The notes under the pieces: generated by a model
What the model was told of the DNA's origin: nothing
What the model saw: the letters and a program-made list of their open reading frames with translations, nothing else
Database searches by the model: none
Shown here: positions 43,209-62,442 of the stretch, piece after piece
How the letters are laid out: each line of letters begins with the position of its first letter
How positions within the stretch are numbered: position 1 is the stretch's first letter
Translations under genes and position numbers: made by a program
Origin: Myxococcota bacterium
GTDB lineage: Bacteria > Myxococcota > XYA12-FULL-58-9 > JABJBS01
Assembly: GCA_036339465.1 (NCBI GenBank)
Contig: JAYZAY010000030.1
Coordinates: 10,731 to 74,730 of the forward strand
Direction: 5' to 3'
Length of the DNA: 64,000 bases

Positions 43209-43778
43209 GTGATGGCCCCTAGAGAGAGAATTCAAAAGGAATCCGGTTTTACCCTTGTTGAGGTGATGACGGTCCTTGGGATCGTCGCCATATTATCAGC
43301 TTTAGCGTACCCTAATTTCATGAAAAGCCGCCAAAAGAGTGTTGCCAGGTCCATTACATATAATTTCTATAATGCTCTCCAGTCAGCGAAGGCGGAAGCA
43401 ATGAAGAAGGGACTCTCGGTGGGAGTCGAGGTGAATTCCGCGAATCGTGAGGTGGTTTCATTTATTAATGATGGTACGGATTTAGCGTTTGATGAAGCGG
43501 AAGACATCGTTTTAGCTCGGTTTTGGTACCAGGCTGACTACGGGTTTTCCTATTTCTCTAATGCCACTACCTGGACAACAGCTTCTCAAGAGCTCCGGGT
43601 TTTTTTCAATTCAAAGGGTGAGGCGGCCGTTGATTTGGGGAATGGGAAAAACTCTATCTGTGATTTAGGAGGTGGCGAGGCGTTGTTTCGTGTTGGAAGT
43701 GATAATGGTACCTCTGCCGGCCAATCCTTTTGGTATGAGATGGTGGTTACATGTATGGGAACCGCGCGAATAAAATAG
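43209..43778 (+). CDS. fimU: FimU/FimT (GspH-like) minor pilin
   Basis: SG|FTLVEVM, AYP, LQSAKAEAMK, FNSKG, C-terminal G.ARIK. Confidence 0.82.
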   Translation: MMAPRERIQKESGFTLVEVMTVLGIVAILSALAYPNFMKSRQKSVARSITYNFYNALQSAKAEAMKKGLSVGVEVNSANREVVSFINDGTDLAFDEAEDIVLARFWYQADYGFSYFSNATTWTTASQELRVFFNSKGEAAVDLGNGKNSICDLGGGEALFRVGSDNGTSAGQSFWYEMVVTCMGTARIK

Positions 43779-43834
43779 GAGGGGTGTCAATCGTCTTTTG
43801 CTCGAGTTACTGGATCTTGAGTAGAATAAGCATC

Positions 43835-45532
43835 ATGAGCGATTCTCAATTATATCGTTTGTTGAAGTTCCGAGCCAGTGTCATTTGTTGGATCCCAATG
43901 CTCCTATGTTTAGGCTCTGTCTCGGCTTATGCAGCACAAAAAGCAAAAATTGCAGTGATCACCATCCCTAAAAAAAATGCGGGTAGCAGTGTATCCCTGT
44001 TTTCTGGAGGTCTTAGAAAGAGACTGGGTAATGATTTCCGCTTTGTTAGTGAGACGAACGTTTTGGAGGCGTATCAGGGGCTTGGTGATAAGGATGAGGT
44101 TGCGCGTGCGAGCAAGGTGCTGGTGGCTTGGAGCCTCAACGGTCTTGTGATTATCGAACCTTCGGTGCGGACAGTTAGGCGTGGAAGAAGGGGCGCAAAA
44201 CGAATCACAACCATTAATTTGATGGTATTTGGGGGCAGTCCCGCTAAGAGTCTTTTACAAGATAAGTTTAGATTGATGGCAGGTAGCCTAGAGGATTCTA
44301 CGTTGAGCTCGAAAGCTCAAGCTATCAAGGCTTTGATTATTCGGTCTCGGGAGAACCAAAATAGGTCGGAGTCCAAGTGGGGTGTTTCTGCACCTGCTAT
44401 CCTTAAGAAACAGGAGTCTGATGTAGTTGAAATAGCTAGAAGCAAAGAGAGTGCTAATAAGATGGCTCGAGAAGTCTCGGAGGTGATTTGGGACTCGGCA
44501 ACCCAGAACAACAATGAAAAATCACAAGCTGGCAGGGTGTCGGAGGCGGATCCATTAGAAGGTAGAGTGGGCTCACAAGGGATTTCTGACAGTAGGAGTG
44601 TTCGTTCGCAACGTCGGGGCGAAGAGAGCAATCGTCAACTTGTTGGTTTTTGGACACCCAAGTCAGCTAAGACTGAAGTGAGCGAACCGGTAGAAAAAAA
44701 AGAAAACGAGTCAGCGACGACTGGCACGCAGAGTCTCTACCGAAAAAAAGAGGTGGAGGGGGCGACTAAAGGGTTCTATTTGGGGCTGTCCCTCTCGTCT
44801 TTAGGCCGAAAGACGGACTTATCAGGAGAAGTGAAGGGTATTTCGCGAGGTCTGTTGAGTCTTAATCGAGATGGTGGCTTGGCGACATTTTCTCCAGGAT
44901 TGGCTCTTACATTGGACCTTTTACCAAGCGCTTTTTTTTCGGGGCAGGAAAGGCGACTAGAGCCCCTTCGACTCCACTTCGGGTTGGAAGCTCATTGGCA
45001 AATGACGTGCGTTGTGAGTAGCAACTCTGCATGTGGGGATACGGGTACTACCGGCGTACTGTCCCACTCATTTTCGGTTTTGTATGAGTTTGAGGTCTTG
45101 CGTAACCGGTCTCTGCTCTTGACTCCGTGGTTGGGATATTTTGGTTCTCACTATCCCCTGCCGGAGAATATTTTTCCAGATACAAACTATGTTGGTGGAA
45201 GTGTGGGGCTGTCTATTGGTTCCGAGTTAACCGAAATGATTTCGATAGATTCGTATCTGGAATTTCTCTTTCCAGTTGTCATATCGGGCAGATTGAAGAC
45301 GATTACAAACACGGTAGCGTCTAGTGGGAATGGTCTAGGGATTGGATTTTCGCTGGGAATTAAAATGCCGGAGGTCTTGGGGGTGCCTGGGACTTTCAAT
45401 GTTGGCTTGGAGCATAGGAGTATTAAGCTTGCCACGGAAAGTGATATTGTGGTGGGAGAAACTTCCGTAAAGGAAGCGACAATTTTGGAACGCCATCTTC
45501 GGGTTCATATGGGGTTAATCAGGGAGTTTTAA
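43835..45532 (+). CDS. Hypothetical exported protein, probable C-terminal outer-membrane beta-barrel
   Basis: Signal peptide (..SAYA|AQ), basic N-domain, S/E/K-rich linker, alternating amphipathic strands, terminal Phe (..GLIREF). Confidence 0.6.
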   Translation: MSDSQLYRLLKFRASVICWIPMLLCLGSVSAYAAQKAKIAVITIPKKNAGSSVSLFSGGLRKRLGNDFRFVSETNVLEAYQGLGDKDEVARASKVLVAWSLNGLVIIEPSVRTVRRGRRGAKRITTINLMVFGGSPAKSLLQDKFRLMAGSLEDSTLSSKAQAIKALIIRSRENQNRSESKWGVSAPAILKKQESDVVEIARSKESANKMAREVSEVIWDSATQNNNEKSQAGRVSEADPLEGRVGSQGISDSRSVRSQRRGEESNRQLVGFWTPKSAKTEVSEPVEKKENESATTGTQSLYRKKEVEGATKGFYLGLSLSSLGRKTDLSGEVKGISRGLLSLNRDGGLATFSPGLALTLDLLPSAFFSGQERRLEPLRLHFGLEAHWQMTCVVSSNSACGDTGTTGVLSHSFSVLYEFEVLRNRSLLLTPWLGYFGSHYPLPENIFPDTNYVGGSVGLSIGSELTEMISIDSYLEFLFPVVISGRLKTITNTVASSGNGLGIGFSLGIKMPEVLGVPGTFNVGLEHRSIKLATESDIVVGETSVKEATILERHLRVHMGLIREF

Positions 45533-45717
45533 CCCCTAACCCAGCATTTTTGTTAGTGTTGGCGCTTCAGTTTTTCTGGGCCAGCTGTGGGCTACGCTTA
45601 AAGTTATGATAAGATAGAGTTGAAGCGATTTTCTTGGTGATAGGGCTCTCTCTTCGTGCCGGTTTAGAGTAGCCAATGAGGGCATGAACCTTGTAGATCC
45701 AGTCAGGAGAAAGACCA

Positions 45718-46401
45718 ATGGTAACAAAAGGTGTGGATGGCGGTGTTGATCCGCGAATTATTAATCAGGGATTGCAAAAGCAAACAACTCAGGAGGCAAA
45801 GAAATCAGACAAACTTTCTGGGGCTGATGCCGCTCGAATTGCAGAGCAGGCCGGATTTCAAAAAGAAAAGAAAAAACGAGGACTTAACCTCGGAGACTCC
45901 TCCCAAGCTCCCATCCCGTTACCAGAGGATGAAGTCAATCTGGAATTATGGGATCAAAGGCGCTTAGAGGCCCTTCACGAGTCCCTAGGCAACATTGGTT
46001 CCGAGCTCGGAGAGGCTAAGGCAGGTGAATCCGATGAGATAGGTGGCGCCATTTTAGAGGGGGTATTTTTGCCTACAGAAGCTTCGAATCAGAAACTTGA
46101 GAAAATAACGGCCAGAGTCAAGGAGCGCCAGGATTTTTCTATGGATGATGAAGCTGTGAGTGCAAGTCTAGGGGCAATGGGAATTGAGGTAAAAGATGCT
46201 GGGGCGGGTGAAAACTTACTTCGCGCCGGCCTTTTGGTATCGGGACAAGCAGATAAAGCGTCACTTTCAGGTAATGAGTTGCTGAACGCCGCTCGGCAGG
46301 TTGTTGAAGACGCTAATGGCGCTGTTGGTCAGGCCCAGAAAATGAATAAAGGTATTGATTTACAACTTAATATGAATCGAACTTTTATGTTTAATCGCTA
46401 G
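45718..46401 (+). CDS. Hypothetical protein (227 aa), candidate T3S substrate
   Basis: AGGAGA RBS, long ORF, no Sec signal, polar N-terminus; next to a SycD-type chaperone. Function inferred. Confidence 0.8.
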   Translation: MVTKGVDGGVDPRIINQGLQKQTTQEAKKSDKLSGADAARIAEQAGFQKEKKKRGLNLGDSSQAPIPLPEDEVNLELWDQRRLEALHESLGNIGSELGEAKAGESDEIGGAILEGVFLPTEASNQKLEKITARVKERQDFSMDDEAVSASLGAMGIEVKDAGAGENLLRAGLLVSGQADKASLSGNELLNAARQVVEDANGAVGQAQKMNKGIDLQLNMNRTFMFNR

Positions 46402-46436
46402 TACTGATTGAGTCTATTATTTGAAGTGAGGAAGTT

Positions 46437-48740
46437 ATGGCGGTTGAAAAAGTTGATGCAAATCTCCCTCGGATGACCCCGGTGGGGCAGGAGTCCGCTC
46501 AGGAAGTTGCCCAAGAGGCATCAGCGGATGACGCGAAGCGGCGTAAACAAGTTAAGAAAGAAGTAGGAAAGGCCCAAACCCAGGAACTTGAAGTCTACGA
46601 AGAAACCTTCAACCGAACTGAGTCAAAATCCCAACGGAAACTACAAAATGTGCTCGGTAAAAGTGCCCCAGAGACACAGCAGGCCCTTAATACGCTCAAT
46701 CAGCTTCAGGGCAATAGGAAGCTGAATAATGCCCAGCGTCAGCTCTTTGAAAATGCCTTGACCAAGAATCCTGAGAAAGCCGCAAAGAGTGTGCAGGTTT
46801 TTGAGCGATTGTCGCAAACCGAAGGCTTTAATACCGCAGTGACGGACCGAGCCATGGTCACCACTTTGGCACAGGAAGTGATTGAAGAGCCCTCAATTGA
46901 AGAGGCAGCAAATGAGCTTTTTGAGCAGTCGTTTCTGCGTGAGAAGAAAAACGATAGCAAAACCCAAAAGGACGCGTTTAAGCATTATCTCAGTCAATTT
47001 AAGAAAGGTGGGACGGAAAAACTCGGTATGAAAGCCGAGTTTGATATGCTCCAATCGGTGAGTCAGTCAGGGGTATCGAAGGAGGCAGTTAGGGCTTCTT
47101 ATGAGGTAGCGAGAAGCCCCAGTGGTGGGGAGAGTGGGCTCGAAAACATTGACTCCTTTGTGAAGTCGGTAGCACCGAAGCTAACGAAACCAGTTGCAAG
47201 TGAAGGTGTTATTACTCTTTCCAAGGCGCGGGGTGATGGAGAAGTAAAAGCATCGCTTAATTCGATGGCAGATAACGCAACTTTTCAGAAGCAGTCGCCA
47301 TCTGTGCAGGTCACGGCCTTTAAGAATTCATCAATAGGCAAAACGACCAGCGATATTCGGGCTATGACCGACCTAAATCTAAAGGTTATGCAGAATGGCA
47401 ATTTGCCGGACCAGCAATCGCAAGTGAAAAACCTCCTCAACCGTGTGGCGGATAAAGCAAGAAAAGAGGGGGCGAGTCAGGTTGACGTAGGCGCGGAAGT
47501 TAAGCGAGCTAAGCGGGAGAGTCCCTTGGAGGGATTGGACGGTCCACTTGATTTGGAATCAACTGAAGGTTTATCTGAAGAGCAAGCGAGACGCGTTCGC
47601 TCCCGAAACCGAGCGAAGATCATTAGTCGATACCAGGCTATTCAAGGGAAGTTGGATGGCCTCAAAAAGAATGTTGGAAAAGCGAAGTGTCGGGAGGATA
47701 TTTCTGAAGCTTCAACCGATCACCGAAAGCTGAAAAACCTTAAAACAGTTTTGGAAGGCCATCACTTGGAAATGACCGAGCCCGATGATCTTGCCTTGGT
47801 AGAAGGTAAGCAGCAAAAGCTTTTAGGGGATTATGAGGCCCTTGGAAAAGAGATACGTAAGAAGAATAGAAGCTTAAAAGGGTCGAAGCGCCGAAGACAA
47901 TCTTCGCGTGCTGCGGGGACAGAGACCAAGACGGCTAAACAAGGTAAAGCATATTTTAAGGCGAATGCTTCCGAAACGAACCAACTTAAGGCATTCATGA
48001 GCGGCGCCCCAGTTTCAGGAGGGTCGGGTGGTGAGACTGGCCCAGCTTTTCGCGGAGAGGCAGATATTGCCTCACAAGTAGCTGAAGCAATGGCCAAGTT
48101 GAAAGGGGGGCCTGTGACTCAAGAGGTCGCCTCACAAGTCGCCACGGCGATTGCGTCAAAGGTGGCTGAGCAAGTTGCTGGAGAAGTGGCACGACAATTG
48201 ATGGAGGGAGCCGCACCGACGGGCGCTCGGCAATCAAAGCCGGAACCGGATTCGGCCTCAAAGTCAACGGTTCAGGGGAAAACAAATGACTGGGGGATGC
48301 CCCTGGGCGGCGGACAAAAGGATTTAGGTGGAGGCCGTCCTGGTGGCACGGAGCAGAAGTCATTCCAAGAGGCCTGGGAGCATCCCGCCGCGACTGACCG
48401 AGCTGTCGCAAACACCCTGCCGGTTTCCGGTAAGAGCTGGGTTGACCCCAGTGATCCACCGCGCTCACTGATGGGGATCATGGATTGTAGTTGGAAAGCT
48501 CTAAAACCCGCTGAACGTCAGATGCTGCGGATGCTGGGATGGGAACTCCAGCGGTGGAATGCCCGTGAAAGTGTTGATTGGCCTCCTGCGATGAAGACTC
48601 AATGGGAAGATCTCTCCGAGAATGAGCAGCAGGCTGTTGGTCAGCTTGGGGTTAGTCGTTCCGATTGGAACATGCGGGCTCGAAGTCTAGAGTCGGCAGG
48701 CAAGAAAATTGGTGCGATGTCCATGGGGCGGAATGCTTAG
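46437..48740 (+). CDS. Hypothetical helical/coiled-coil protein (767 aa), candidate T3S substrate
   Basis: GAGG RBS, long ORF, no Sec signal; internal PKLTKP, basic patch, tetrad repeat, C-terminal duplicated W..L...E.Q....LG.....WN motif. Confidence 0.85.
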   Translation: MAVEKVDANLPRMTPVGQESAQEVAQEASADDAKRRKQVKKEVGKAQTQELEVYEETFNRTESKSQRKLQNVLGKSAPETQQALNTLNQLQGNRKLNNAQRQLFENALTKNPEKAAKSVQVFERLSQTEGFNTAVTDRAMVTTLAQEVIEEPSIEEAANELFEQSFLREKKNDSKTQKDAFKHYLSQFKKGGTEKLGMKAEFDMLQSVSQSGVSKEAVRASYEVARSPSGGESGLENIDSFVKSVAPKLTKPVASEGVITLSKARGDGEVKASLNSMADNATFQKQSPSVQVTAFKNSSIGKTTSDIRAMTDLNLKVMQNGNLPDQQSQVKNLLNRVADKARKEGASQVDVGAEVKRAKRESPLEGLDGPLDLESTEGLSEEQARRVRSRNRAKIISRYQAIQGKLDGLKKNVGKAKCREDISEASTDHRKLKNLKTVLEGHHLEMTEPDDLALVEGKQQKLLGDYEALGKEIRKKNRSLKGSKRRRQSSRAAGTETKTAKQGKAYFKANASETNQLKAFMSGAPVSGGSGGETGPAFRGEADIASQVAEAMAKLKGGPVTQEVASQVATAIASKVAEQVAGEVARQLMEGAAPTGARQSKPEPDSASKSTVQGKTNDWGMPLGGGQKDLGGGRPGGTEQKSFQEAWEHPAATDRAVANTLPVSGKSWVDPSDPPRSLMGIMDCSWKALKPAERQMLRMLGWELQRWNARESVDWPPAMKTQWEDLSENEQQAVGQLGVSRSDWNMRARSLESAGKKIGAMSMGRNA

Positions 48741-48757
48741 GGCGCAGAAATCTTGAA

Positions 48758-49246
48758 TCAGACGCTCTGGGTGTGAAGACTCAAAAGCAATTCTGCTCGT
48801 TGTACCCAAGGTCCGTACTCTGGAACCTCGCCGGCGATTTGAAGGACCACTCTAAGGTCTTCTAAGCCGGAATCAGCATTTTTCGATAAAATATGAGATT
48901 CGCCGCGATAGACGTAACTTACTACGTCATATTCATCGTTGGCTATGGCCATGTCGTACGCCGCTATGGCTTCATGATAGTCTTTGAGTTGTTGATTTAC
49001 GGCTCCCAACGCACGCCAGTAGTGTGCGGTATAGGGGGCATAAGCTGTTAGCCCCGTGAAAATATCTTTGGCAGCATCATATTTTCCATAGGTGAAAAAA
49101 TTATATCCCAATGCATATATGGTCTCCATTTCCTCATCGCTAATGCCTTCAAGTTCTTGGAGCGTAATGAGACCGTTCATAAATCCATGAATCATGAATT
49201 CCAGGTATTGCGCCGCCGTTGTTTCTATTTCAGTCGCTTGAACCAT
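48758..49246 (-). CDS. SycD/LcrH/CesD-family type III secretion class II chaperone (3 TPR)
   Basis: TLQELEGISDEEMETIYALGYNFFTYGKYDAAKDIF..L......YW.ALGAV.Q..K.Y.EAI.AY matches the family pattern; small and acidic. Confidence 0.85.
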   Translation of the reverse strand: MVQATEIETTAAQYLEFMIHGFMNGLITLQELEGISDEEMETIYALGYNFFTYGKYDAAKDIFTGLTAYAPYTAHYWRALGAVNQQLKDYHEAIAAYDMAIANDEYDVVSYVYRGESHILSKNADSGLEDLRVVLQIAGEVPEYGPWVQRAELLLSLHTQSV

Positions 49247-49354
49247 AGACAAGTTATACCCAACACGGGGCTACGGCGCCAGTCTCTAGAATAGTTTCGA
49301 AGTCCTTTTGAGTCTGCATTTCCGGGGGAAGGGGGAATGCCATACTAAAAATCC

Positions 49355-50083
49355 CTATGGTTCGAAATGTGTTGCGTGGAGCATGGGGAGAGAGGCGGCA
49401 AGAAGCGCAGCGGTTTCGACGCGAAGGGTGGTTTCAGTAAGGCGCAGTGAAGTGAAGCCCTTTTGGCCAAACTGTTCTAATTCATCATCGGTGAATCCGC
49501 CCTCTGGTCCAATAGCAATAAGGATGGAATCGAGTTTTCCTATTTCCTGGAGCTTAAGTGAGATATCATGAGGCTCCGGGTGACAGAAGACCGATGTCAC
49601 GTTTGGATATTTCGTCAGTAATGAATTGAAACTAACGGGTGTGTCAAGAATAGGAACACGGCAATGGCCGGATTGTTCGGTGGCGGAGCGCGCGATCTTT
49701 AGGAGCCGTTCCCGTTTACCTCGGATTTTTTCTAGTGATGTTACCGTCCGATGCGTTTCCATAAAAATAATTTCGTGACAGCCCAACTCGGCCAGTTTTT
49801 GAACGATCCATTCAAGCCTGTCGTTTTTAGGGGGCGGCAAAGCGATTCGAACCAGGCACTGAGGCTCCCGAACCAGTTGGATCGGGCCGACGTGCGCAGT
49901 TGTTTCGTTTTTCTTAACTTCGAACAGCTTTGCAGTTCCGATGCGTCTCTGGTCATCAAAGACTTCGATTTCCTCCCCTGGGGAAAGTCTGAGAACCCGA
50001 GTCAGATAGTGGCTTTGCTCTCGCGGCAAGACAATTTTTCCCGTCTGAATTTCAGGTAGCCATAAGTATCTTTTTTTGGACAT
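49355..50083 (-). CDS. rsmE: 16S rRNA (uracil1498-N3) methyltransferase RsmE
   Basis: HYLTRVLRL, QKLAELG, ATEQS, IGPEGGF, LRVETAA. Confidence 0.96.
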   Translation of the reverse strand: MSKKRYLWLPEIQTGKIVLPREQSHYLTRVLRLSPGEEIEVFDDQRRIGTAKLFEVKKNETTAHVGPIQLVREPQCLVRIALPPPKNDRLEWIVQKLAELGCHEIIFMETHRTVTSLEKIRGKRERLLKIARSATEQSGHCRVPILDTPVSFNSLLTKYPNVTSVFCHPEPHDISLKLQEIGKLDSILIAIGPEGGFTDDELEQFGQKGFTSLRLTETTLRVETAALLAASLPMLHATHFEP

Positions 50084-53494: not shown

Positions 53495-54313
53495 ATGCCA
53501 CTGACTCAATCAGAATATGAAACGATCAGAAAGTTAGTGCTGAACCGATCCGGGATTGTACTTGATACGCATAAGCAGGCTTTTACGGAGCAGAAACTCG
53601 GCCCGCTAGCAGAAGAGCATGGTTTGACGACGCTTTCTGACGTGGTCCAGAAGGTTGCTTCGAATCCGACTGGTCCGCTTATGCAGAAGGTCGTCGAGGC
53701 GATTACGACTCCAGAAACGGGTTTTTTTCGCGACAACCGTGCATTCAAAGCATTGAAAGAGGCAGTTTTTCCAAAATTGATTGAGAAGCGTGGTATGGAG
53801 CGAGCTCTAAATATTTGGTCGGGTGCGTGTTCAACAGGCCAAGAACCATACAGTATATTGATGCAGATTCATGAAAATTTTCCAGAGCTAAAAGGATGGA
53901 CGATTCGTTTTATTGCCACAGACATTTCATCGAAGGTCTTAGCCCAAGCTAAAGAAGGGGTTTTTAGTCAATTGGAAATGAACCGCGGGTTACCCGCTCC
54001 GCTTCTACTTAAATATTTTCAAAAGAATGGCTTGCAATGGCAGGTTAAACCAGTGATTCGAAGTCTGGTTGATTTTCGAGTATTAAATTTAATTGAGCAA
54101 TGGCCCCCACTTCCGAAAATGGACATTATCTTTATGAGGAATGTTTTGGTTTATTTTGAAACAGAGACAAAGCGAAAGATCCTCAATAAGGTTGCCGACT
54201 CCCTAAAGCCCGGGGGGCATTTGTTTCTGGGGATGGCTGAAATTCCGATGACCAGTGAGAATCGTTTTGATAAGCTCGAATACGAGCGTTCAGGGTGCTT
54301 TGTCCTAAAATAG
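53495..54313 (+). CDS. cheR: Chemotaxis methyltransferase CheR (copy 1)
   Basis: ETGFFRD, IWSGACSTGQEPYS, ATDIS, RNVLVYF, GGHLFLG. Confidence 0.93.
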   Translation: MPLTQSEYETIRKLVLNRSGIVLDTHKQAFTEQKLGPLAEEHGLTTLSDVVQKVASNPTGPLMQKVVEAITTPETGFFRDNRAFKALKEAVFPKLIEKRGMERALNIWSGACSTGQEPYSILMQIHENFPELKGWTIRFIATDISSKVLAQAKEGVFSQLEMNRGLPAPLLLKYFQKNGLQWQVKPVIRSLVDFRVLNLIEQWPPLPKMDIIFMRNVLVYFETETKRKILNKVADSLKPGGHLFLGMAEIPMTSENRFDKLEYERSGCFVLK

Positions 54314-54649
54314 CTTGGGTTGCCGAGTTGAGCTGTTTCTTCGCCGCGATCGGGGCACTGCCATTTCATTCCCTTCTTGGAACAAAGCTCCAGAACCAAG
54401 TCAGCATCTAGAGCTCGAGCGTCCTGTTTTCTAACCGCCAAAAAGACCTACGACCTTCTGACTTACGAGAAAGATGCCTTTGTGTTGGCCTATTGGGGCA
54501 ACGGAAGTTCAAGTAATTTTCATATATGTTCTCTTTTATGGAATGGCACAAAAGATTTTGGGTTTGTTGGCGAGTTGAAGGAATCGAAGGAGGGGGCCTC
54601 ACAAAGACCATCTATAGTAGCGGAAGAGGTCTCTGAAGTGGCGCCTAAG

Positions 54650-55185
54650 AGGAGATCGAGGAGATTCGAAGCCCTGGGTCAACCTAGGCTCCAAAGACAG
54701 CTGGCGAACCCGTATTCAATTACAAGGAGCTAGGGAAATGAACGGAGTTTAGGAGATTGTCGAGACCACCCTCTATGGCTGCAACCGCCAAAGAGTCCCA
54801 TGGGTAAAACTATCCAGTCCATCCTCAATCACTGAGAGTCGCTAAGTCGGTTCACAGAAGATCAGATAGCCTGAGTTGACAACAACGGTGCAGAAAAAGC
54901 ACTCCGGACCGTTGCGCTCGGTGGTAAGAACGACGTTTTTGTCGAGACGAAGCAGAGCGCTAAGAATCTTGGGGACTCTACTCGGTCATTTCCATCTGCG
55001 AAGCCAGCCGAGTCAATGCCAGCGATGGTCTCGCGGAACTTCTTTTTCGGGTAATGAGTCACCCAGCGTCAAAGCTCGATCCGTTAGTGCTCCAGCACAG
55101 GCAGTCGCCGGCTTAAAGTTATGTCACCTAAAATCCCGTTATTACAGCGGTCGTTGCGAGGCAATGGCCTCGGCGGGACGGCTAC
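54650..55185 (+). mobile_element. IS66-family remnant: degraded tnpC 3' end plus putative right terminal repeat
   Basis: From 54782: PPKSPMGKTIQSILNH*ESLSRFTEDQIA*VDNNGAEKALRTVALGGKN; after a frameshift near 54971: GLYSVISICEASRVN..LAELLFRVMSHPASKLD. End ..CGGGACGGCTAC (55185) resembles IS66 termini. Confidence 0.85.
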
Positions 55186-55336
55186 TTAACCTGAAGCTCG
55201 AACGAATTGTTAGCCTTTGGGCAGAAGGGCCTATGCTTCGCACAGAGGTACATTTAAGGAACGCAGAAAATGCTAAGCCTAATCAAACGAAGGGGTATCA
55301 ACGTTATGTAAAATGAATCGGGACCGTGATGTCTGG

Positions 55337-55813
55337 CTAATAATCGCTGACGATGGCTGTGTCATTAGAGTAGGAGAGTAGTAACGTGAAATTGTCGCCA
55401 CAGAGATCAATGTGCTGCCATCTAGTATCCGTTAAGCTTGTTGCAAATTCCACTTGAGTAAATACTTTAGGGAGGCCAAGATTTTGGCTTAGATTCAACA
55501 ATCCTTTGATTTGACCGGCTAACATATTTGCTAATTCTGCGGTCGTGTCTTGGATCATATCCAGTTCAACATCAGTTAGTTCTGTGGCGAACAATGCAGC
55601 CGCCAATGTAGAGGAACCAGCCAGATCTGAGGAGATTGCTACGGTGATTGGATGAGGCCCTGGCATTGCTAGCACCCCTGTGCAGTAAAGCATTTTTTTG
55701 CGTTGTTCTGGGAGATGTACGACCGGCGACTGTCGGACGTCCATTCCAAGCATTGTTGAGGTGATATTGTTGAATATTTCAACAAAGGTTTGGTCATCTG
55801 GAAGCGCTAGCAT
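55337..55813 (-). CDS. cheX: CheX-like phosphatase (copy 2)
   Basis: D..AELANMLAGQIK (ExxN motif), LGLP; last gene of the che run. Confidence 0.8.
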   Translation of the reverse strand: MLALPDDQTFVEIFNNITSTMLGMDVRQSPVVHLPEQRKKMLYCTGVLAMPGPHPITVAISSDLAGSSTLAAALFATELTDVELDMIQDTTAELANMLAGQIKGLLNLSQNLGLPKVFTQVEFATSLTDTRWQHIDLCGDNFTLLLSYSNDTAIVSDY

Positions 55814-55840
55814 ATGGCGTCAACTCCATCTGAGACTGGC

Positions 55841-56677
55841 TCAAGTTAGTTTAAATTTGGTCTGATAACACTCCGAGTGCTTCAGTGGAATTCGTGCAAA
55901 CCTATCGGCAACATTCATTGGCATTTCAGTAGCCCCTAAGAAGATAAATCCGCCGGGGCGCATTTGCTTCCTAGCTTTTGAAATAATTTTCTCTTTCGTG
56001 GGGCCATCCAAATAAATTAAGGCGTTTCCCAGGAAGATGATATCCATTTGTTCAAAAGGGGGCCAATTTTCAACTAAATTGAGTTGTCTGAATTCTATTT
56101 GTTTGCGGATTTCAGGTTTAACTTGCCACTGCAAGTCGTGTTTTACGAAATATTTACTCAACAGTTGGGCCGGTAGTCCTCGGTTAATTTCTAATTGGCT
56201 GAACTTTCCTTCTTTGGCTTTCTCTAGGAGCTTACCCGAAATATCGGTTGCAACAAATCGAAGTTTCCATTTCAATAATAGTTGAGGGAATTTTTCGTAG
56301 AGAAGCATCAGTATTGTGTATGGGTCTTGTCCGCTGAAAGAGCCCCCACACCACAGGGACAGCTTCTTTTCGCCTGCGCGAGCCCATAGCATCCAGGGAA
56401 TGACGTGATCTTGAAGCGCTCTCAAGGAAGGAATATGTCGGAAAAAACTTGATTCATGAATCGTGATTGCTTCTGTTACTTTTTGATGAAGTTGGCTGCT
56501 GGCTGGAACCTTTCGTAGTTGCAAAACGACCTCAGCAGGGGACTTAAGTCCCAATTCATCCCCTATCGCACCCAGTCGAGATTCAACGAAATACTGCTTA
56601 TTCGTATCCAGGACAATTGATGTTTTTTCTGCTATCAGATCTCGAATATAGTCGAAATCACTATCTTTGAGAGCCAT
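55841..56677 (-). CDS. cheR: Chemotaxis methyltransferase CheR (copy 2, divergent SAM-binding motifs)
   Basis: ESSFFR, ATDIS, NRGLP, GGFIFLG; GGSFSGQD and GNALIY are atypical. Confidence 0.88.
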   Translation of the reverse strand: MALKDSDFDYIRDLIAEKTSIVLDTNKQYFVESRLGAIGDELGLKSPAEVVLQLRKVPASSQLHQKVTEAITIHESSFFRHIPSLRALQDHVIPWMLWARAGEKKLSLWCGGSFSGQDPYTILMLLYEKFPQLLLKWKLRFVATDISGKLLEKAKEGKFSQLEINRGLPAQLLSKYFVKHDLQWQVKPEIRKQIEFRQLNLVENWPPFEQMDIIFLGNALIYLDGPTKEKIISKARKQMRPGGFIFLGATEMPMNVADRFARIPLKHSECYQTKFKLT

Positions 56678-56722
56678 TCGTCACCTACCATCACTTGTGT
56701 GGACACAGGAAGCAACCATTTG

Positions 56723-57799
56723 TTATTTGAGCCGCCTTACGATTTCTTGATACAGGCTTCCTAAGGGCCTGACAGCATCCGCTAACCCTGCTTTCGCAAC
56801 ATAACCCGGCATACCCCACACCACAGACGACTGTTCATCTTGCACAACGACGCTCCCCCCCATATCCACTATCTTACGACATCCCTTGAGTCCATCGCTA
56901 CCCATTCCTGTCAAAATAATCGCCAAAACACCATTACGGTAGACATCGGCGGCGGACCTAAACAAGACATCTACAGCAGGTCGACACGAATTTTCAGGAT
57001 CCCCCTTGTGGGTTTGGAGTCTGGGGCCAGTGGGTGCCTTGGTTACGACCATATGAAAGTCGCCGGGAGCGATCCAAACCTTACCAGATTCAATGTGAGT
57101 ATCATTTCCACATTCGAATACGTCATGCCCGGTGTTTGCGGCTAGCCTCTCGGCGAATATGCTTGTAAAAATGGGGGGCATATGTTGGACGATCAAAATG
57201 GGAAGAGGAAATGGCTTTGGAAGTTGCGCCAGAACTTCTGTGAGTGCATTTGGGCCCCCCGTTGATGTTCCCATGACTAAGAGTTTTGGAGGGAGGGCGT
57301 GCTTTTTCGGGGTCACTCTTACGACTGGCCCAACCGTTGCGCCATCATTTAGTGAGAGCAACGCATTGGAAGTTCTAAGTTCCTTACTGGCTCGTCCGAA
57401 TAGCCTCAGTTTCGGCAAAAGCTCATCTCGGATGATCTCTAGAGCGCTTTTTCCGCCTGCCACTGACGAAGGTTTGGTAACATAATCTGATGCGCCCTTG
57501 GCGAGTGCGTCGAGCGTAGCCCTAGCTCCCCTTAGAGTTATTGTGCTAAACGCAATAACCGCTAATTTCTGGTCTTCGTTACGAAGTCGAACGAGGGTTT
57601 CCAACCCGTCCATTTGTGGCATATCGAGATCTAGTACAACGACGTCTGGTTTAAGGGCCGCCACTTTTTCTAGCGCAAGACGTCCGTTTGAAGCTGTACC
57701 GATAACAGTAAGCTCCGGATCTCGTTCGATGCATTCCGACAACATTGTCCTGGACACGACTGAATCATCGACGATTAAGACACGGACTGGGTCGTGCAT
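56723..57799 (-). CDS. cheB: Chemotaxis response regulator methylesterase CheB
   Basis: REC domain (VDDS, LDLDMP) plus catalytic GTSTGG, QHMP, LTGMGSDG. Confidence 0.96.
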   Translation of the reverse strand: MHDPVRVLIVDDSVVSRTMLSECIERDPELTVIGTASNGRLALEKVAALKPDVVVLDLDMPQMDGLETLVRLRNEDQKLAVIAFSTITLRGARATLDALAKGASDYVTKPSSVAGGKSALEIIRDELLPKLRLFGRASKELRTSNALLSLNDGATVGPVVRVTPKKHALPPKLLVMGTSTGGPNALTEVLAQLPKPFPLPILIVQHMPPIFTSIFAERLAANTGHDVFECGNDTHIESGKVWIAPGDFHMVVTKAPTGPRLQTHKGDPENSCRPAVDVLFRSAADVYRNGVLAIILTGMGSDGLKGCRKIVDMGGSVVVQDEQSSVVWGMPGYVAKAGLADAVRPLGSLYQEIVRRLK

Positions 57800-57806
57800 A
57801 TCCTAT

Positions 57807-58175
57807 TCAGTCGGTAAGGCCGAGAATTTCGAGTTTTTCTGCGATCATTTCCTTCGTGAATGGCTTCATTAAGTACTCGTTCGCACCTGCTTCGAGCGCT
57901 TTTGCCATTTGAGAAATTTCACTCTCGGTTGTAACCATCATCACGTTAAGACCATTATACTTTGGATCAGCTCTGATATTACACAGGAACTCGTAACCAT
58001 TCATTTCTGGCATGTTCCAGTCAACCAGAGCTAAATCCGGCACACCGGTTTCGCCTAGCTTCGTGAGAGCTTGTTTTCCATCGCCAGCCTCAAATACTTC
58101 GAAACCCAGGTCTTTGAGGATTTTACCGATGATGCGTCGAATCGCCTTTGAATCATCAACTACTAAAGCACGCAT
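57807..58175 (-). CDS. cheY: CheY-like single-domain response regulator
   Basis: VVDDS, VDWNMP, VTTE, KPF; 122 aa; within the che cluster. Confidence 0.9.
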   Translation of the reverse strand: MRALVVDDSKAIRRIIGKILKDLGFEVFEAGDGKQALTKLGETGVPDLALVDWNMPEMNGYEFLCNIRADPKYNGLNVMMVTTESEISQMAKALEAGANEYLMKPFTKEMIAEKLEILGLTD

Positions 58176-58228
58176 ACGAACATCCGCCCCAAATGTTTTT
58201 CACATAGTTTGAAATTAATTTACTCTAA

Positions 58229-58257
58229 ACGTTATTGTTTTCCCTAGGTCGGGTCAA
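58229..58257 (-). promoter_or_regulatory. Candidate sigma70 promoter for cheY-cheB-cheR-cheX
   Basis: Minus strand TTGACC-N17-TAACGT in an AT-rich gap about 55 nt upstream of cheY. Confidence 0.4.
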
Positions 58258-58373
58258 TAATTTTCAGCGAATCCTAATCGCAACCATCTGCCTTCTGGCC
58301 GGAAAAATTGAATTAAACATCCACCAAAACTCATTACCACTCCCAGCAACTCTCTTTTTATACCTTTAACTTC

Positions 58374-58841
58374 TTATGTCTCCGGTATATATTTCCATAC
58401 TTCGATTCTTAGAAACGCACCCTCAGATTCCATTGTTGTGGTCCCTATTTTTTGACAGTGTGGTATGTCCACGCTCAACTCCCTGCCCTCGGTAATCGTT
58501 GGCAGGGATAATAGACTCTTGGGAGCAAGCTTTCCCTTTATGAGTCCACCCACTTGGTTCGCCAACTCCCCCACAGCGTCGTGCACATCTTCGGCTTCTA
58601 CCTCTTCCCGATCCATTCCAAAAATGTGCCCAGCGGCTAACTTCGCTAACGTGTTCTCGAAATGTAGCGTGACACCACCCTTCCAATCTCCCTCCAAAAG
58701 GATTGAGCCAATGACAGATCTACCTTCAGGGCCCTCCGCAGCTGCGACATCTGGCTTCTTGACCAAACTAAACCCAAGCATTGGGCTCCAAACTTGACCT
58801 GTTATTCGAAAAATTTCGTCTGTTGCAATGCTGTCCGACAT
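58374..58841 (-). CDS. cheX: CheX-like phosphatase (copy 1)
   Basis: DAVGELANQVGGLIK (ExxN), LSLPTITEG; AGGAG RBS before ATG 58841. Confidence 0.85.
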   Translation of the reverse strand: MSDSIATDEIFRITGQVWSPMLGFSLVKKPDVAAAEGPEGRSVIGSILLEGDWKGGVTLHFENTLAKLAAGHIFGMDREEVEAEDVHDAVGELANQVGGLIKGKLAPKSLLSLPTITEGRELSVDIPHCQKIGTTTMESEGAFLRIEVWKYIPET

Positions 58842-59075
58842 TTTCCAATGGCTCCTGGCGTGGACGCGGAGTTTTGCTGCCTTGCCCCGGGACAAGCCCG
58901 AACTCAAGTCTCCCTACTAGATTGGCGCAATTGCGATTAAATTGCAAACGACGTGATTGGCAAGCTCTTAATCGTAGACTTAGTGAGTCGGAAAAAAGCG
59001 CGTTACTTTAGTGGTTATGCCAGGGCACGACGTCGGGTTTGGTGAGTGGATACAGTTAACTTGGCTTCTGGCACC

Positions 59076-59103
59076 ATCTTTTTGGGCTTTGATCTTTTTG
59101 GGC
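59076..59103. repeat. Perfect 12-bp direct repeat ATCTTTTTGGGC x2 (16-bp period)
   Basis: Copies at 59076-59087 and 59092-59103 in the gap upstream of cheX. Confidence 0.7.
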
Positions 59104-59121
59104 CTTTCTTTCTTTTAAGAG

Positions 59122-59209
59122 AAAAAAAATTGAGATTTCTGGGGTGTCTTGACGGGCGTTTCGATTGAATTTCGGTTCAAATGAGTAGAGATGAACCCGA
59201 TAATCTCAA
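59122..59209 (-). terminator. Candidate stem-loop followed by a U8 tract downstream of the kinase operon
   Basis: TTGAGATT (59130-59137) is complementary to AATCTCAA (59202-59209); A8 at 59122-59129 reads U8 on the minus strand. The loop is long for a canonical terminator. Confidence 0.3.
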
Positions 59210-59266
59210 ATATGGTTTTTCCCCAAAAAAAACTCCTATCTTTGGTTTTTCCGGCTTCATAGCAAT

Positions 59267-60568
59267 TTAGCTGAATCGTTGAATAACAAAGTCGAAATAC
59301 GCCGAAGTTCCTTGTCCGATATTACTTTCCAATCGGATATTTCCATCAAGTAGTTCCACGATCTGCTTGGCCACCGTTAGGCCGAGGCCTGCTCCACCGA
59401 ACTTACGCGTGAGCGAACCGTCTACCTGACGAAATGGTTCGAACATCTGGGATACCTTTTCCGGTGGGATCCCAACTCCCGTGTCGCGAACACAGAAAAA
59501 GAGGTGCAGGAGATCTCCGTTTACTTCGATTTTCTCGGTGAAAACATCGATCGATCCATCTTGGGTAAACTTAATCGAATTTTCAATAATGCAGTGTAAG
59601 AGTTGTTTGATTCTGCGCCGATCCCCGTAGCCAAATTCCGGCAAGTCGTCGCATTCAACACGCCATTCTAGATTTTTCTTTTCAGGAAATTGAGACTGAA
59701 TGTTTTCGACAACTTCGTGAATGGGACCCAGCAGGGAAAACTTCTCCCAGACGCTTTCCACCTGTCCTTCTTGGGCTTGGGCGACGTCAAGAATTTGACT
59801 AATGAGGGCCATTAAAGCATCGGCGCTTTCTTTGATTATTGAGATCGAATCTCGGTGGTCCATCGAAAGGGTATCATCCATGAGAAGGATATCGATAAAA
59901 CCCAAAATACCATTCATAGGAGTCCGCATTTCGTGACTCATATTGGCGAGAAATTCATCTTTAACTTGTGTGGCGGTGATGAGCTCGTCTTTTGTCTTTC
60001 TGATCTCCCTTGTCCGCTCATTGACCATGGCTTCAAGATGTTCGAGTTTGAGAAGCGCCAATTGGCTTAAGTTCCATTTTTGTCCAAGTGCTGTCGCAAG
60101 TTGGGTCACCTCAATCGGGTCGAATGGTTTTTTGAGAATGAGAATTCGGTCTGAATGGCCGAGATTCTCAAGGATTTCGTGCCAGGTATAATCCGCAAAT
60201 GCGGTACAAATGACGATCTGAATGTCATCTTCTACTTCGAATATTTTATGGATAGTTTCAAGCCCGTCCCAGCCAGGCGGCATCCGCATATCGACAAACG
60301 CGACTGAATAGGGGACACCTTGTTGACGCGCTTTGAGGATCTTATTGAAACCCTCTTCTCCCTGAGAGGCAAACGACAGCTCAAAATCGGGTCCTTCCCT
60401 GGCGGGAGGGCTGCTTGTTTCACTTTCTCCGAAAATACTGGCTTCTAGGGCTTCTAAACCCGATTGAGGTTTCTCGTGAAAAAAGATCTTCCTGAAATCT
60501 TCATGAATTGCGTCATTATCATCGATAATGATGAGCTTTAACCGCTTATTTTCATGGGGTTGCATCAT
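59267..60568 (-). CDS. Hybrid REC-HisKA-HATPase histidine kinase
   Basis: IIDDN..VDMRMPPGWDG..KPF, MSHEMRTP, DTGVG, GGAGLGL; ATGA overlap with the upstream kinase. Confidence 0.92.
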   Translation of the reverse strand: MMQPHENKRLKLIIIDDNDAIHEDFRKIFFHEKPQSGLEALEASIFGESETSSPPAREGPDFELSFASQGEEGFNKILKARQQGVPYSVAFVDMRMPPGWDGLETIHKIFEVEDDIQIVICTAFADYTWHEILENLGHSDRILILKKPFDPIEVTQLATALGQKWNLSQLALLKLEHLEAMVNERTREIRKTKDELITATQVKDEFLANMSHEMRTPMNGILGFIDILLMDDTLSMDHRDSISIIKESADALMALISQILDVAQAQEGQVESVWEKFSLLGPIHEVVENIQSQFPEKKNLEWRVECDDLPEFGYGDRRRIKQLLHCIIENSIKFTQDGSIDVFTEKIEVNGDLLHLFFCVRDTGVGIPPEKVSQMFEPFRQVDGSLTRKFGGAGLGLTVAKQIVELLDGNIRLESNIGQGTSAYFDFVIQRFS

Positions 60569-62430
60569 TGTTTTATTGCCCATTTAACTGGAATTTCCAG
60601 AGAAAAAACAGCACCATGTCCAAGTCCTTCGCTACTCGCTGAAAGATTTCCGCCCATTTCCTTTGCCGCGAGTGCTCCAGTATGAAGTCCGAAACCATGG
60701 CCAGATTTTTTCGTTGTAAAACCGTGAGCAAATATTCTTGTAAGGTTTTCCGCGCTGATCCCAACTCCATTATCTCCGATGTCAATGACCAGCCGATTTG
60801 ACCCGCGTACCCGGTTTTTGATCGTAATTGCCTTTTCATCGATGCCCGATTCAGCCAAGGAATCAGCGGCGTTCTTAACCAAATTGACAAGAATTTGAAG
60901 TACTTTTTGACGATCCATAAGGACTTCCGTTATTTTTGAAAGTTCGAATGATATCCCGATCTCGTTTTTTTGCAAGACGGATTCGTTGATATTTACCGCG
61001 TCTTCGACCAATTCGTCGATCGCGACTGGTTCAGATGGCCCGGACACTTTCGCGAACGATTGCTGAAGGCTGATGATGTCTTTAATATGATTGATGTTTT
61101 TTGTTAGACGAAGGATTTCAGTACTCATTAATTCTCGTTCTTGTTCCAGTATTCCAGAGAGAACTGACAAGTATTGTGGCAGTTTTTGTGCTCGATCATC
61201 GTGTGTGAAGAATTCTCCTAACTGCTTGCCATTTTGCTCTAGAAGTTCTGAGACTTTCTTGATGCCCATAAATTGCAGTTTTCGAACTTTTTCTTGCAAG
61301 AGGGTGGCCGAGACGTTCACGCTATTTAACACATTGCCCACATTATGGAGTACACCTGTGGCGACCTCTGCCATTCCGGCCTGCCTCGAAGCATCCACCA
61401 GTTGTCGCTGAGTTTCTGCTAGTTTGGCCTGGGCCATTTTTCTTTCTTGGATTTCGTCCGTGAGGCTTTCATTGGTATTACGTAGAGCGATGGCTTGCAT
61501 TTCAAGGCTTTGGACGTTGTTCTCGATGGCTGCTTGGTTGGCTTTTAGATTGTAGACCATGGTATTCATGGCTTCTCCCAGGGTGTCGTATCCAGAGGCT
61601 AGTTCAACCTTTACGGTTAGATCGCCTCCAGCAATGTTTTCAGCCAAGCGTACTTTTTTGAGTAGGTTGTCCGCAAATTCGTCCATTGCTCGGGCCATCT
61701 GGCCGATTTCATCCGTCGTTTCGATACGCAGTCTGCGACCTAATTTTCCTTTGCGTAGTTCATCTAGCATTTCGACGGTGCGAGCCAACGGTTTGGTGAT
61801 CATTTTCCTTATAGAAAATTGGACAAGGATAATGGACGAAAACATGGCGATGACAAAAACGAGGACCAGTAATTCTGCACGTCGCTTCGTTGAATCGATA
61901 ACTGTCTTTAGACTCGTTTTAAGGTCTTCTGAATATCGCCAGGAAAGTTTATCTAGGGCAGCTAAGATCTCGTTCTTTTGTGAGTCCAATTTGCCTAGTA
62001 GCTTTTGTTCGTTTTCTGTTAGCACGCTGTTTAATACTAGGGGCTGGTAGGTCGAAGTGGCGATTTCGGTAAAGGTTTTCAGGCTCAATTTTATTTTCCT
62101 AGCCTCATTTCTCTCTTCTTGAGGCAATTGCCTCAGTGTTATAATTCTATTAAGTGCGTTGAGCGCGTCCTCCGCTTCACGACTGGCCTGATTTATGTAG
62201 CCAGCTTCGCCGAACACAAAGGCATCTTCGTACAGTTTGGTTTGAGTTTCAAAGGCGGAGAGGGCGCTCTGGCTTTGCTGAGTGGCAGGGAAGATTGCAT
62301 TTGAAGTCTGATTGAGCTGCGCTTCGTTTTGGCGACCAGAATAGACACTAAGAATCATTGAAAGCATATAGCCCACGACAATGAAGCTAATACTGAGCCA
62401 AATTTTTCCGCTAATCTTCAAGGAGTTCAT
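60565..62430 (-). CDS. Membrane sensor histidine kinase with periplasmic helical domain and tandem HAMP
   Basis: 2 TM helices, DEIGQMARAMD and DTLGEAMNTM HAMPs, GMAEVATGVLHNVGN H-box, DNGVG, GHGFGL. Confidence 0.92.
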   Translation of the reverse strand: MNSLKISGKIWLSISFIVVGYMLSMILSVYSGRQNEAQLNQTSNAIFPATQQSQSALSAFETQTKLYEDAFVFGEAGYINQASREAEDALNALNRIITLRQLPQEERNEARKIKLSLKTFTEIATSTYQPLVLNSVLTENEQKLLGKLDSQKNEILAALDKLSWRYSEDLKTSLKTVIDSTKRRAELLVLVFVIAMFSSIILVQFSIRKMITKPLARTVEMLDELRKGKLGRRLRIETTDEIGQMARAMDEFADNLLKKVRLAENIAGGDLTVKVELASGYDTLGEAMNTMVYNLKANQAAIENNVQSLEMQAIALRNTNESLTDEIQERKMAQAKLAETQRQLVDASRQAGMAEVATGVLHNVGNVLNSVNVSATLLQEKVRKLQFMGIKKVSELLEQNGKQLGEFFTHDDRAQKLPQYLSVLSGILEQERELMSTEILRLTKNINHIKDIISLQQSFAKVSGPSEPVAIDELVEDAVNINESVLQKNEIGISFELSKITEVLMDRQKVLQILVNLVKNAADSLAESGIDEKAITIKNRVRGSNRLVIDIGDNGVGISAENLTRIFAHGFTTKKSGHGFGLHTGALAAKEMGGNLSASSEGLGHGAVFSLEIPVKWAIKQ

Positions 62431-62442
62431 TTTATTTCTAGC

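Follow-up and report, generated by a model that had tools for sequence, protein, structure and literature searches.

The 64,000-nucleotide stretch analyzed here (the window; GenBank assembly GCA_036339465.1, contig JAYZAY010000030.1, positions 10,731 to 74,730 of the forward strand) comes from a Myxococcota bacterium of the order JABJBS01 (source genome G000; 4.17 Mb, 92.8% complete) and includes two adjacent genes for proteins of 227 and 767 amino acids (aa), here given the working names P2 and P3, that converge on the gene for a 162-aa chaperone (SycD-B). The interpretation that we favor, at a probability of about 60%, is that these genes represent a reduced version of a satellite locus, kept throughout the order, of a nonflagellar type III secretion system (T3SS) and that P2 and P3 are soluble, chaperone-held substrates rather than parts of a membrane pore. 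SycD-B belongs to a known family and has an unusual genomic setting, and P2 and P3 represent undescribed families.

45718..46401, plus strand: P2, 227 aa; unnamed order-specific family; likely T3SS substrate
46437..48740, plus strand: P3, 767 aa; unnamed order-specific family, all-helical; likely T3SS substrate, effector-like
48758..49246, minus strand: SycD-B, 162 aa counted from the ATG; SycD/LcrH (class II) tetratricopeptide repeat (TPR) chaperone

The three open reading frames (ORFs) had been proposed in a first-pass annotation made from the letters of this DNA, and their coordinates, the 17 nucleotides (nt) separating the convergent stops of P3 and SycD-B, and the ribosome-binding sites of both plus-strand genes were verified. 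P2 and P3 are 35 nt apart and are preceded by Shine-Dalgarno-like sites (AGGAG 8 nt before the P2 ATG and GAGG 5 nt before the P3 ATG); an alternative TTG start lies two codons upstream of the SycD-B ATG. The same annotation had seen no injectisome gene in the window, and indeed none was seen among the ORFs of the contig (N termini read by eye), all nine core genes being placed on other contigs by tblastn. The window contig also carries dnaA and parAB-like genes, names that were read from the sequences and not from a family scan. A consensus scan of positions 45400 to 49500 gave 1 promoter-like site, compared with an expectation of 3.2, and detected no terminator where the genes converge.

SycD-B is a class II chaperone

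SycD-B scored 116.7 bits against the LcrH_SycD model TIGR02552 (cutoff, 104.8) over model positions 4 to 134 of 136, i.e., 131 positions covered, and none of the control genomes (0/14) rose above that cutoff. This full-length match supports the earlier assignment to the SycD/LcrH-type TPR chaperones. Among proteins of solved structure, its best relatives are PcrH, AcrH, and IpgC, along with SycD, and the SscA and SscB models were matched weakly. A grouping with generic TPR proteins had been named as one of the results that would refute the first-pass proposal; in the tree, SycD-B, a second chaperone found in relatives (SycD-A), and both halves of a tandem chaperone from a separate translocator operon formed one clade (98/98) apart from SctY-like TPR proteins, with long branches flagged. 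SycD-B is 76 to 89% identical (average, 83%) in 21/21 relatives of the order, a conservation that matches that of SctV. It is not encoded beside hydrophobic translocators: its neighbors contain no transmembrane segments, and the translocators are found on contig C33 with a tandem SycD of their own.

49253..49258, minus strand: TATAAC, a -10-like box 6 nt before the SycD-B ATG, without a Shine-Dalgarno sequence

Of 17 upstream regions inspected, 14 have a similar box 5 to 10 nt ahead of the start codon and the other 3 had mis-set starts, and sycD-B is likely transcribed from its own leaderless sigma-70 promoter. The arrangement further suggests that sycD-A and sycD-B may be made as separate leaderless transcripts. 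The regions upstream of both genes in relatives (L033-L094) contain TTGACA-like and -10-like boxes ending 5 to 10 nt before the ATG; a shared sigma-28-type promoter, looked for by eye upstream of the chaperone genes, was not seen.

A nonflagellar T3SS is encoded elsewhere in the genome

The unlinked T3SS that the first-pass annotation had postulated is present in the genome. Contig C64 (36 to 51 kb) carries genes for SctI-like, SctJ, SctK-like, SctL, SctN, SctO, SctP, and SctQ proteins, a FliO-like protein, SctR, SctS, SctT, and SctU, together with a FliA-like sigma factor and two TPR proteins, and sctV stands alone on C59. SctV, SctR, and SctS scored above their family cutoffs, and SctN (602.1 versus 604.75), SctU (350.1 versus 358), SctJ, SctT, SctQ, and SctL fell below theirs though these were the best-matching families. 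SctV scored 835.6 on TIGR01399 (cutoff, 692) versus 675.9 on FlhA (cutoff, 772), identifying it as SctV and not FlhA, and its orthologue is 77 to 87% identical in 21/21 relatives. G000 also carries flagellin, rod/hook, and FliI genes; flagellar export genes were looked for in this genome and not found. P2 is kept in genomes with only the SctV type of export gate, including the 100%-complete G012.

No T3SS secretin was found in G000, whose only secretin is PilQ. Each of five relatives searched has further secretins, the two that were classified being GspD. With PilQ as the one secretin of G000, the outer membrane route might be shared with the type IV pilus. For the gatekeeper SctW, there was no TIGR02568 match in 26 of 27 genomes (one matched at an E value of 0.009) and none by PF07201 in G000, the SctW models being silent in the controls as well. 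The PF16697 search for SctD returned many FHA proteins.

Candidates for small apparatus proteins were also observed. A row of genes on C64 (36211-37705; L010:1712-3203) encoding a 109-aa protein, a 159-aa protein, and a TPR protein recalls YscE-YscF-YscG, and the 159-aa protein ends like a needle subunit without matching a needle model. In two 10-Mb genomes of family f17, four tandem, nearly identical 74-aa ORFs lie in the T3SS cluster between sctU-TPR and TPR-sctV (L114:6678-8190, minus strand; L115:6625-8167, plus strand), and a single copy occurs at L119:6838-7059 (minus strand), the genomes concerned overall being G131, G139, and G161. The top Pfam match of these ORFs is T3SS_needle_F, at E values of 0.014 to 0.018 (0.0018 for the single copy of G161), all below the cutoff; they may encode a needle subunit of a system described as needle-less.

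The translocators are encoded in a separate operon

The first-pass annotation had proposed that P2 and P3 might be a noncanonical translocon pair. G000 contains a translocator operon on another contig (C33:93-98 kb; L011, C33:90749-97674), consisting of a tip-like gene, a tandem SycD (124.9 bits, above the TIGR02552 cutoff), a 391-aa SctE-like protein that has a strongly hydrophobic segment and matches SseC (E value, 2.8e-4), and a 281-aa SctB-like protein. Among the 20 loci surveyed in relatives (one genome was not included), the tandem SycD and SctE-like genes were present in 19, the tip-like gene in 16, and the SctB-like gene in 16, most misses falling at contig ends; the SctE-like gene was duplicated in 4 loci. 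SseC was matched by 4 of 7 SctE-like proteins (E values of ≤0.006) and SseD by 3 of 7 SctB-like proteins (≤0.003), all below the cutoff. Profile alignment (hhalign) of P2 and P3 with the families of this operon gave probabilities of at most 5.2%, and at most 2.0% with the SctE- and SctB-like families. With a separate translocon in the genome, no similarity of P2 or P3 to it, and no transmembrane segments in either protein, the translocon proposal became unlikely. A gene-for-gene duplication of the translocator operon as the source of the P2-P3 locus was likewise rejected by hhalign for P2, P3, and the coiled-coil gene that accompanies them in relatives.

The two loci have homologous tip genes in relatives. 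The paralogue located between P2 and P3 in relatives aligned with the operon's tip gene at 99.8% probability (E value, 2e-27); EspA (score, 0.94) and LcrV (0.92) are represented among its nearest Atlas clusters, each by 12% of the members, and it had no direct Pfam or PDB sequence match. In the tip-like family, the helices at both ends of the protein are nearly invariant and the inserts between them vary, in ORFs of approximately 280 to 1,400 aa. The family is multicopy and present in 22/22 genomes of the order, the highest number of match segments in one genome being at least 9, and from its sequences it looks like a set of interchangeable tip or filament subunits.

C1:68052-69611 and C3:24776-26551: tip-like genes in G000 (also L122, L123, and others)

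The window holds a shortened form of a six-gene locus

The full locus in relatives comprises six genes: sycD-A, P2, the coiled-coil gene, the tip paralogue, P3, and a convergent sycD-B. P2 was found as a single copy in all 22 genomes of the order (21/21 relatives), and its profile matched none of 279 other genomes of the phylum (0/279). P3 was present in 21/22 genomes (20/21 relatives) and in 1 of 229 genomes outside the order, through its Trp domain only. Directly upstream of P2 in 21/21 relatives is sycD-A, whose product is 40 to 46% identical to SycD-B, and the coiled-coil protein and tip homologue are usually the two genes encoded between P2 and P3. In 16 of the 20 relatives, the convergent sycD-B is no more than 7 kb from P3, and in 11 of them no more than 1 kb; in the other 4, the two genes lie on separate contigs, with a distance that clearly exceeds 25 kb in one. 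This conserved layout of the trio across the order, which the first-pass annotation had proposed to check, exceeds what chance would produce.

Neither sycD-A nor the coiled-coil gene was found in G000 by tblastn, and the two tip paralogues that the genome keeps are on other contigs. Judged by its gene content, the window appears to carry a shortened form of the locus from which three extra genes (sycD-A, the coiled-coil gene, and the tip paralogue) have been lost. One metagenome locus (L073) also has P3 directly after P2. The earlier picture of one chaperone with two partners holds insofar as the three genes co-occur and stay neighbors, but six genes, two of them for chaperones, make up the full locus, and SycD-B also occurs without the partners (in G025, from another order). 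P2 and P3 are always accompanied by chaperones, and not the reverse.

Some loci depart from this layout. P2 is in two pieces in G006 (L051) and P3 is in two pieces in G008 (L037), which could be an assembly error or a real break. In G012, a 777-aa helical ORF (L052:9508-11838) lies between P2 and sycD-B, at the usual place of P3; it was rejected as a P3 homologue because it had no hidden Markov model match, the resemblance being positional only. On contig C102 of G025 (L180-L181), sycD-A is part of a group of several SycD genes accompanied by tip-like and SctB-like genes and by very large substrate-like ORFs of 995 and 1,518 aa, and sycD-B lies 28 kb from it, beyond an apparent polyketide cluster.

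P2 and P3 are soluble proteins of undescribed families

No Pfam or NCBIfam family was matched by P2 or P3 at an E value of ≤0.1, in agreement with the first-pass annotation, which recognized no family, Sec signal, or transmembrane hairpin in either protein. The highest 19-residue Kyte-Doolittle means (0.71 for P2 and 0.79 for P3) indicate that there is no transmembrane segment or signal peptide; across the families, the maxima were 0.65 to 1.61 for P2 ORFs and 0.42 to 1.19 for P3 ORFs, compared with 1.83 to 3.49 for complete SctE-like proteins. The extreme C termini of both proteins are conserved.

The P2 model (33 sequences; predicted local distance difference test [pLDDT], 61) has a disordered segment at residues 1 to 34 (pLDDT of <50), a conserved helix that starts at residue 35 and runs to about residue 44 to 47, and a coiled-coil hairpin formed by helices 80 to 102 and 185 to 210 around a small helical insert. 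The conserved blocks are DAARxAQQAGF, GDSSxAPIPLP, and a C-terminal QRTFxxxR.

45907..45924, plus strand: APIPLP anchor-like motif, P2 residues 64 to 69; xx[LIV]xxP kept in 32/33 homologues

This motif is located where the anchors of class II chaperones lie. The available text of one source gives P/VxLxxP as the chaperone anchor of translocators (PMC13466201); the strict form is conserved in neither P2 nor P3, and the real translocators of the order mostly do not have it either. Sequence-profile searches of the PDB with P2 gave nothing meaningful, and Foldseek gave 0 matches at an E value of ≤0.001. The best VIA-align Z score of P2 was 8.3, to coiled coils, three-helix bundles, and designed repeats only, and no significant fold identity was assigned.

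The P3 model (20 sequences; pLDDT, 72; predicted template modeling score, 0.48) begins with residues of low confidence (1 to 14; pLDDT of <50) and consists, in order, of a long N-terminal helix, a solenoid (residues 78 to 360), a three-helix bundle (381 to 500), a flexible linker, and a Trp-rich domain.

46668..47516, plus strand: predicted helical solenoid, P3 residues 78 to 360; pLDDT mostly 85 to 95; no significant fold match
47832..47954, plus strand: basic patch, P3 residues 466 to 506; net charge of +11; resembles a nuclear-localization or nucleic-acid-binding stretch
48438..48692, plus strand: unnamed Trp-rich two-repeat domain, P3 residues 668 to 752

The basic patch is conserved in 31/31 homologues, with net charges of +4 to +16. 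The Trp-rich domain is repeated in algal and protist proteins and recurs in proteins with calpain, EF-hand, DCD, and EGF domains; 79-aa stand-alone bacterial proteins carry it as well (TM, 0.62/0.82) and the domain is therefore not exclusive to eukaryotes. Of 10 clusters looked up, 4 had the domain in MMETSP and EukProt records, and the other 6 were unnamed metagenome records. A single-sequence search with P3 found only P3 itself among 7,995 scored candidates, and a profile search gave 260 matches at an E value of ≤0.001, 150 of them listed; 10 homologues that were looked up had no protein names. PDB sequence-profile searches gave nothing meaningful, and Foldseek gave 0 matches at an E value of ≤0.001. 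A resemblance to TAL effectors was rejected, the best natural Foldseek rows (E value, 0.018; TM, 0.13) being read as generic helical repeats, and the best VIA-align Z score of 13.9 was to coiled coils, three-helix bundles, and designed repeats only. P3 of the window averages 30% identity to its relatives, which are 36 to 57% identical to each other; the corresponding average for SycD-B is 83%.

The N termini of P2 and P3 resemble those of secreted substrates

The N termini of P2 and P3 had been described as polar. A logistic classifier based on the composition of residues 2 to 31 was trained with the tip and translocator families of the order as positives and with 399 ORFs of G000, split in halves, as negatives, and it recovered held-out substrate families at an area under the curve (AUC) of 0.92 to 0.97. 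The family AUC was 0.90 for P2, 0.82 for P3, and 0.96 for the coiled-coil gene, compared with 0.20 to 0.50 for three chaperone families; window P2 fell at the 94th and window P3 at the 92nd percentile. This weak test provides support for substrate status, not proof.

Unannotated ORFs of G000 with strongly T3S-like N termini are further candidate effectors (C4:23050-25323, C50:13915-14604, C75:24567-26153, C82:13227-14804, and C89:5712-6974).

Proposed function and alternative explanations

What was seen directly comprises the family of the chaperone, a T3SS unlinked to the window, a translocator operon apart from it, the layout of six genes in relatives, and the loss of three of these here; every step beyond gene content is inferred. 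P2 would dock its xPIPLP motif in the TPR groove of a SycD chaperone, normally SycD-A and here, where sycD-A was not found, probably SycD-B; its export as a middle substrate would then accompany that of the tip proteins. For P3, the SctE/SctB pore would be the passage into a target cell. Given the SctE/SctB translocon and the domains of P3, this target would most likely be a protist or an alga, and once inside, the solenoid, basic patch, and Trp-rich domain may act on host proteins or nucleic acid. The tip and translocator genes of the order point at least as much to eukaryotic targets as to Myxococcus-like predation. SycD-B is likely to be a general chaperone of this T3SS, serving the tip family and translocators as well as P2 and P3, rather than one dedicated to P2 and P3, and the chance that it binds P2 or P3 itself is put at slightly below even.

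A more ambitious version, which is possible but decidedly tentative, is that the order has an early-branching T3SS without a secretin and with a translocon and a polymorphic, multicopy tip/filament family, in which P2 and P3 would be the invariant core cargo, P3 would be directed to the nucleus or nucleic acid of protists and algae, and an ultraconserved pair of class II chaperones would take soluble cargo. In that case, P2 and P3 would be the first candidate substrates of this T3SS branch.

Several observations weigh against a satellite locus with P2 and P3 as chaperone-held substrates. G025, a 100%-complete genome from another order, encodes SycD-B (81% identity), SycD-A, and the same SctV type (78%), and the P2 and P3 profiles find nothing in it. 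The gene for SycD-B has its own -10-like box, stands on the strand opposite to P2 and P3, and keeps its rsmE-side neighbors when apart from P3 (G017); since gene order is generally conserved in the region near dnaA, the adjacency of the trio may be inherited order. A tight trio is further disfavored by the lost, co-oriented sycD-A, a likelier partner of P2 than SycD-B, and the first residue of the P2 motif does not fit the strict P/VxLxxP. The classifier missed SctP (72nd percentile) and ranked the cytoplasmic SctN at the 92nd; it mostly reads polar, disordered N termini, its positives are related, and its negatives come from G000 alone. No T3SS secretin that would provide a route across the outer membrane was found. 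Finally, single-copy, order-wide conservation is unusual for an effector.

The strongest rival, though an unlikely one, is that P3, P2, or both are control parts of the T3SS, either a gatekeeper analogue that determines the order of secretion by binding a class II chaperone, as CopN binds Scc3, or an exported or RNA-binding regulator. It would explain why no SctW was found although tip and translocator genes are present, and it suits single-copy core genes with conserved extreme C termini and a SycD-B as conserved as SctV; the binding of Scc3 to SctW is a precedent in the available text of PMC13466201. SctW was absent from the listed sequence and fold matches of P2 and P3, with the qualification that the P3 model is long and its solenoid was barely searched alone. 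G025, moreover, combines this type of T3SS with the two chaperones but not with P2 or P3, and the Trp-rich domain has no obvious gating role.

It is improbable that SycD-B serves other T3SS cargo while P2 and P3 are cytoplasmic proteins unrelated to secretion that happen to lie in a conserved block near the origin. The separate promoter and strand of sycD-B, the occurrence of SycD-B without P2 and P3 in G025, and the conservation of the flanking pilin/PilY1 and rsmE-glmU blocks would all fit such bystanders, which would leave unexplained the co-orientation of P2 and P3 with sycD-A and the tip paralogue in relatives and their substrate-like N termini. Still less credible is the first-pass version, in which SycD-B would chaperone P2 and P3 as a noncanonical translocon pair: a class II chaperone with a large and a small partner next to it, the tip paralogue between them in relatives, and the anchor-like motif and coiled-coil hairpin of P2 are features expected of it, and it is contradicted by hydropathy maxima of both families below the SctE-like range of 1.83 to 3.49, by the lack of SctE/SctB profile similarity, and by the translocator operon already in the genome. 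Least probable is that P2 and P3 belong to the flagellar export system, as cargo or as components. G000 encodes that system in part (flagellin, rod/hook, and FliI genes), and the N/C coiled-coil hairpin of P2 resembles axial proteins in outline; against this, G006, G009, G012, G014, and G017 keep P2 with no FlhA-type gene found in them, no flagellar family was matched, and SycD-type chaperones are not known to be flagellar.

With P2 and P3, two concrete, order-wide candidate substrates can be named for the myxobacterial T3SS branch and tied to tip and translocator genes within that branch, a finding that bears on the origin of the injectisome from flagella before secretin recruitment. It also suggests that widespread uncultured bacteria of the order may inject eukaryotic microbes.

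Neighboring genes

At the place of sycD-A, the window has a gene (43751-45532, plus strand) for a 593-aa protein with a likely signal peptide and a beta-barrel-like C-terminal half; it has no Pfam or NCBIfam match and no counterpart in the loci of relatives. Further upstream, on the same strand as P2 (35487-43778, plus strand), are type IV minor pilin genes and a gene for a 1,857-aa PilY1-like adhesin, and of 21 loci compared, 16 have the pilin family and 12 have the PilY1-like family. Downstream (53495-63816) are two CheR-like genes, CheB, CheY, and CheX-like genes, and a sensor pair, all named from their sequences; no link to the trio was seen.

Comparison with known systems

A literature search that covered few subscription papers found no publication that describes this locus or reports a translocon for uncultured Myxococcota. 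The lcrV-sycD-yopB-yopD type of operon (SycD/LcrH, PcrH, IpgC, and AcrH) resembles the locus in its TPR chaperone above the cutoff, in the tip paralogue and second SycD seen in relatives, and in the anchor-like motif near residue 65 of P2. It differs in that P2 and P3 have no transmembrane segments or SctE/SctB similarity, SycD-B is convergent with its own promoter, and the true translocator operon is elsewhere.

The Salmonella SPI-2 genes are arranged in the order sseB-sscA-sseCD-sseE-sscB-sseFG, and like them the full locus has two TPR chaperones around a filament or tip gene and further cargo. SseF and SseG are transmembrane effectors, however, whereas P2 and P3 are soluble and unrelated to them, and the window locus is far from the apparatus genes.

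By gene content, the apparatus falls in the same branch as the needle-less T3SS* of Myxococcus xanthus (MXAN_2434-2464), the shared features being a FliO-like gene in the cluster, several LcrH-like genes, and no secretin found. SctV of the order is 59% identical to SctV of 10-Mb genomes of the phylum versus 48% to the best plasmid SctV. The available text of the sources describes this myxobacterial branch as being without secretin, needle, tip, and translocon and its effectors as unknown (PMC3459982, PMC10433427, and PMC12075869); the order studied here, in contrast, carries genes for a tip protein and SctE/SctB-like proteins, and none of 115 genomes (0/115) of the T3SS*-bearing family gave a match to P2. 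Among the metagenome-assembled genomes of a 2026 preprint, T3SSs are mostly confined to the class Myxococcia according to its available text, and its supplements may list the systems of the order (10.64898/2026.07.10.737566).

Scc3-CopN of Chlamydia likewise pairs a class II chaperone with a soluble helical partner, with T3SS genes distributed over several loci. It is unlike the present case in that no SctW match of P2 or P3 was among the matches listed and P3 is twice as long, with extra domains. As far as the available text of the sources shows, class II-type chaperones with nontranslocator cargo have precedents in SscB, which chaperones the effectors SseF and SseG (PMC9993115), and in Scc3 with SctW (PMC13466201), and SycD-A and SycD-B with P2 and P3 would allow the handling of soluble cargo by class II chaperones to be put to the test.

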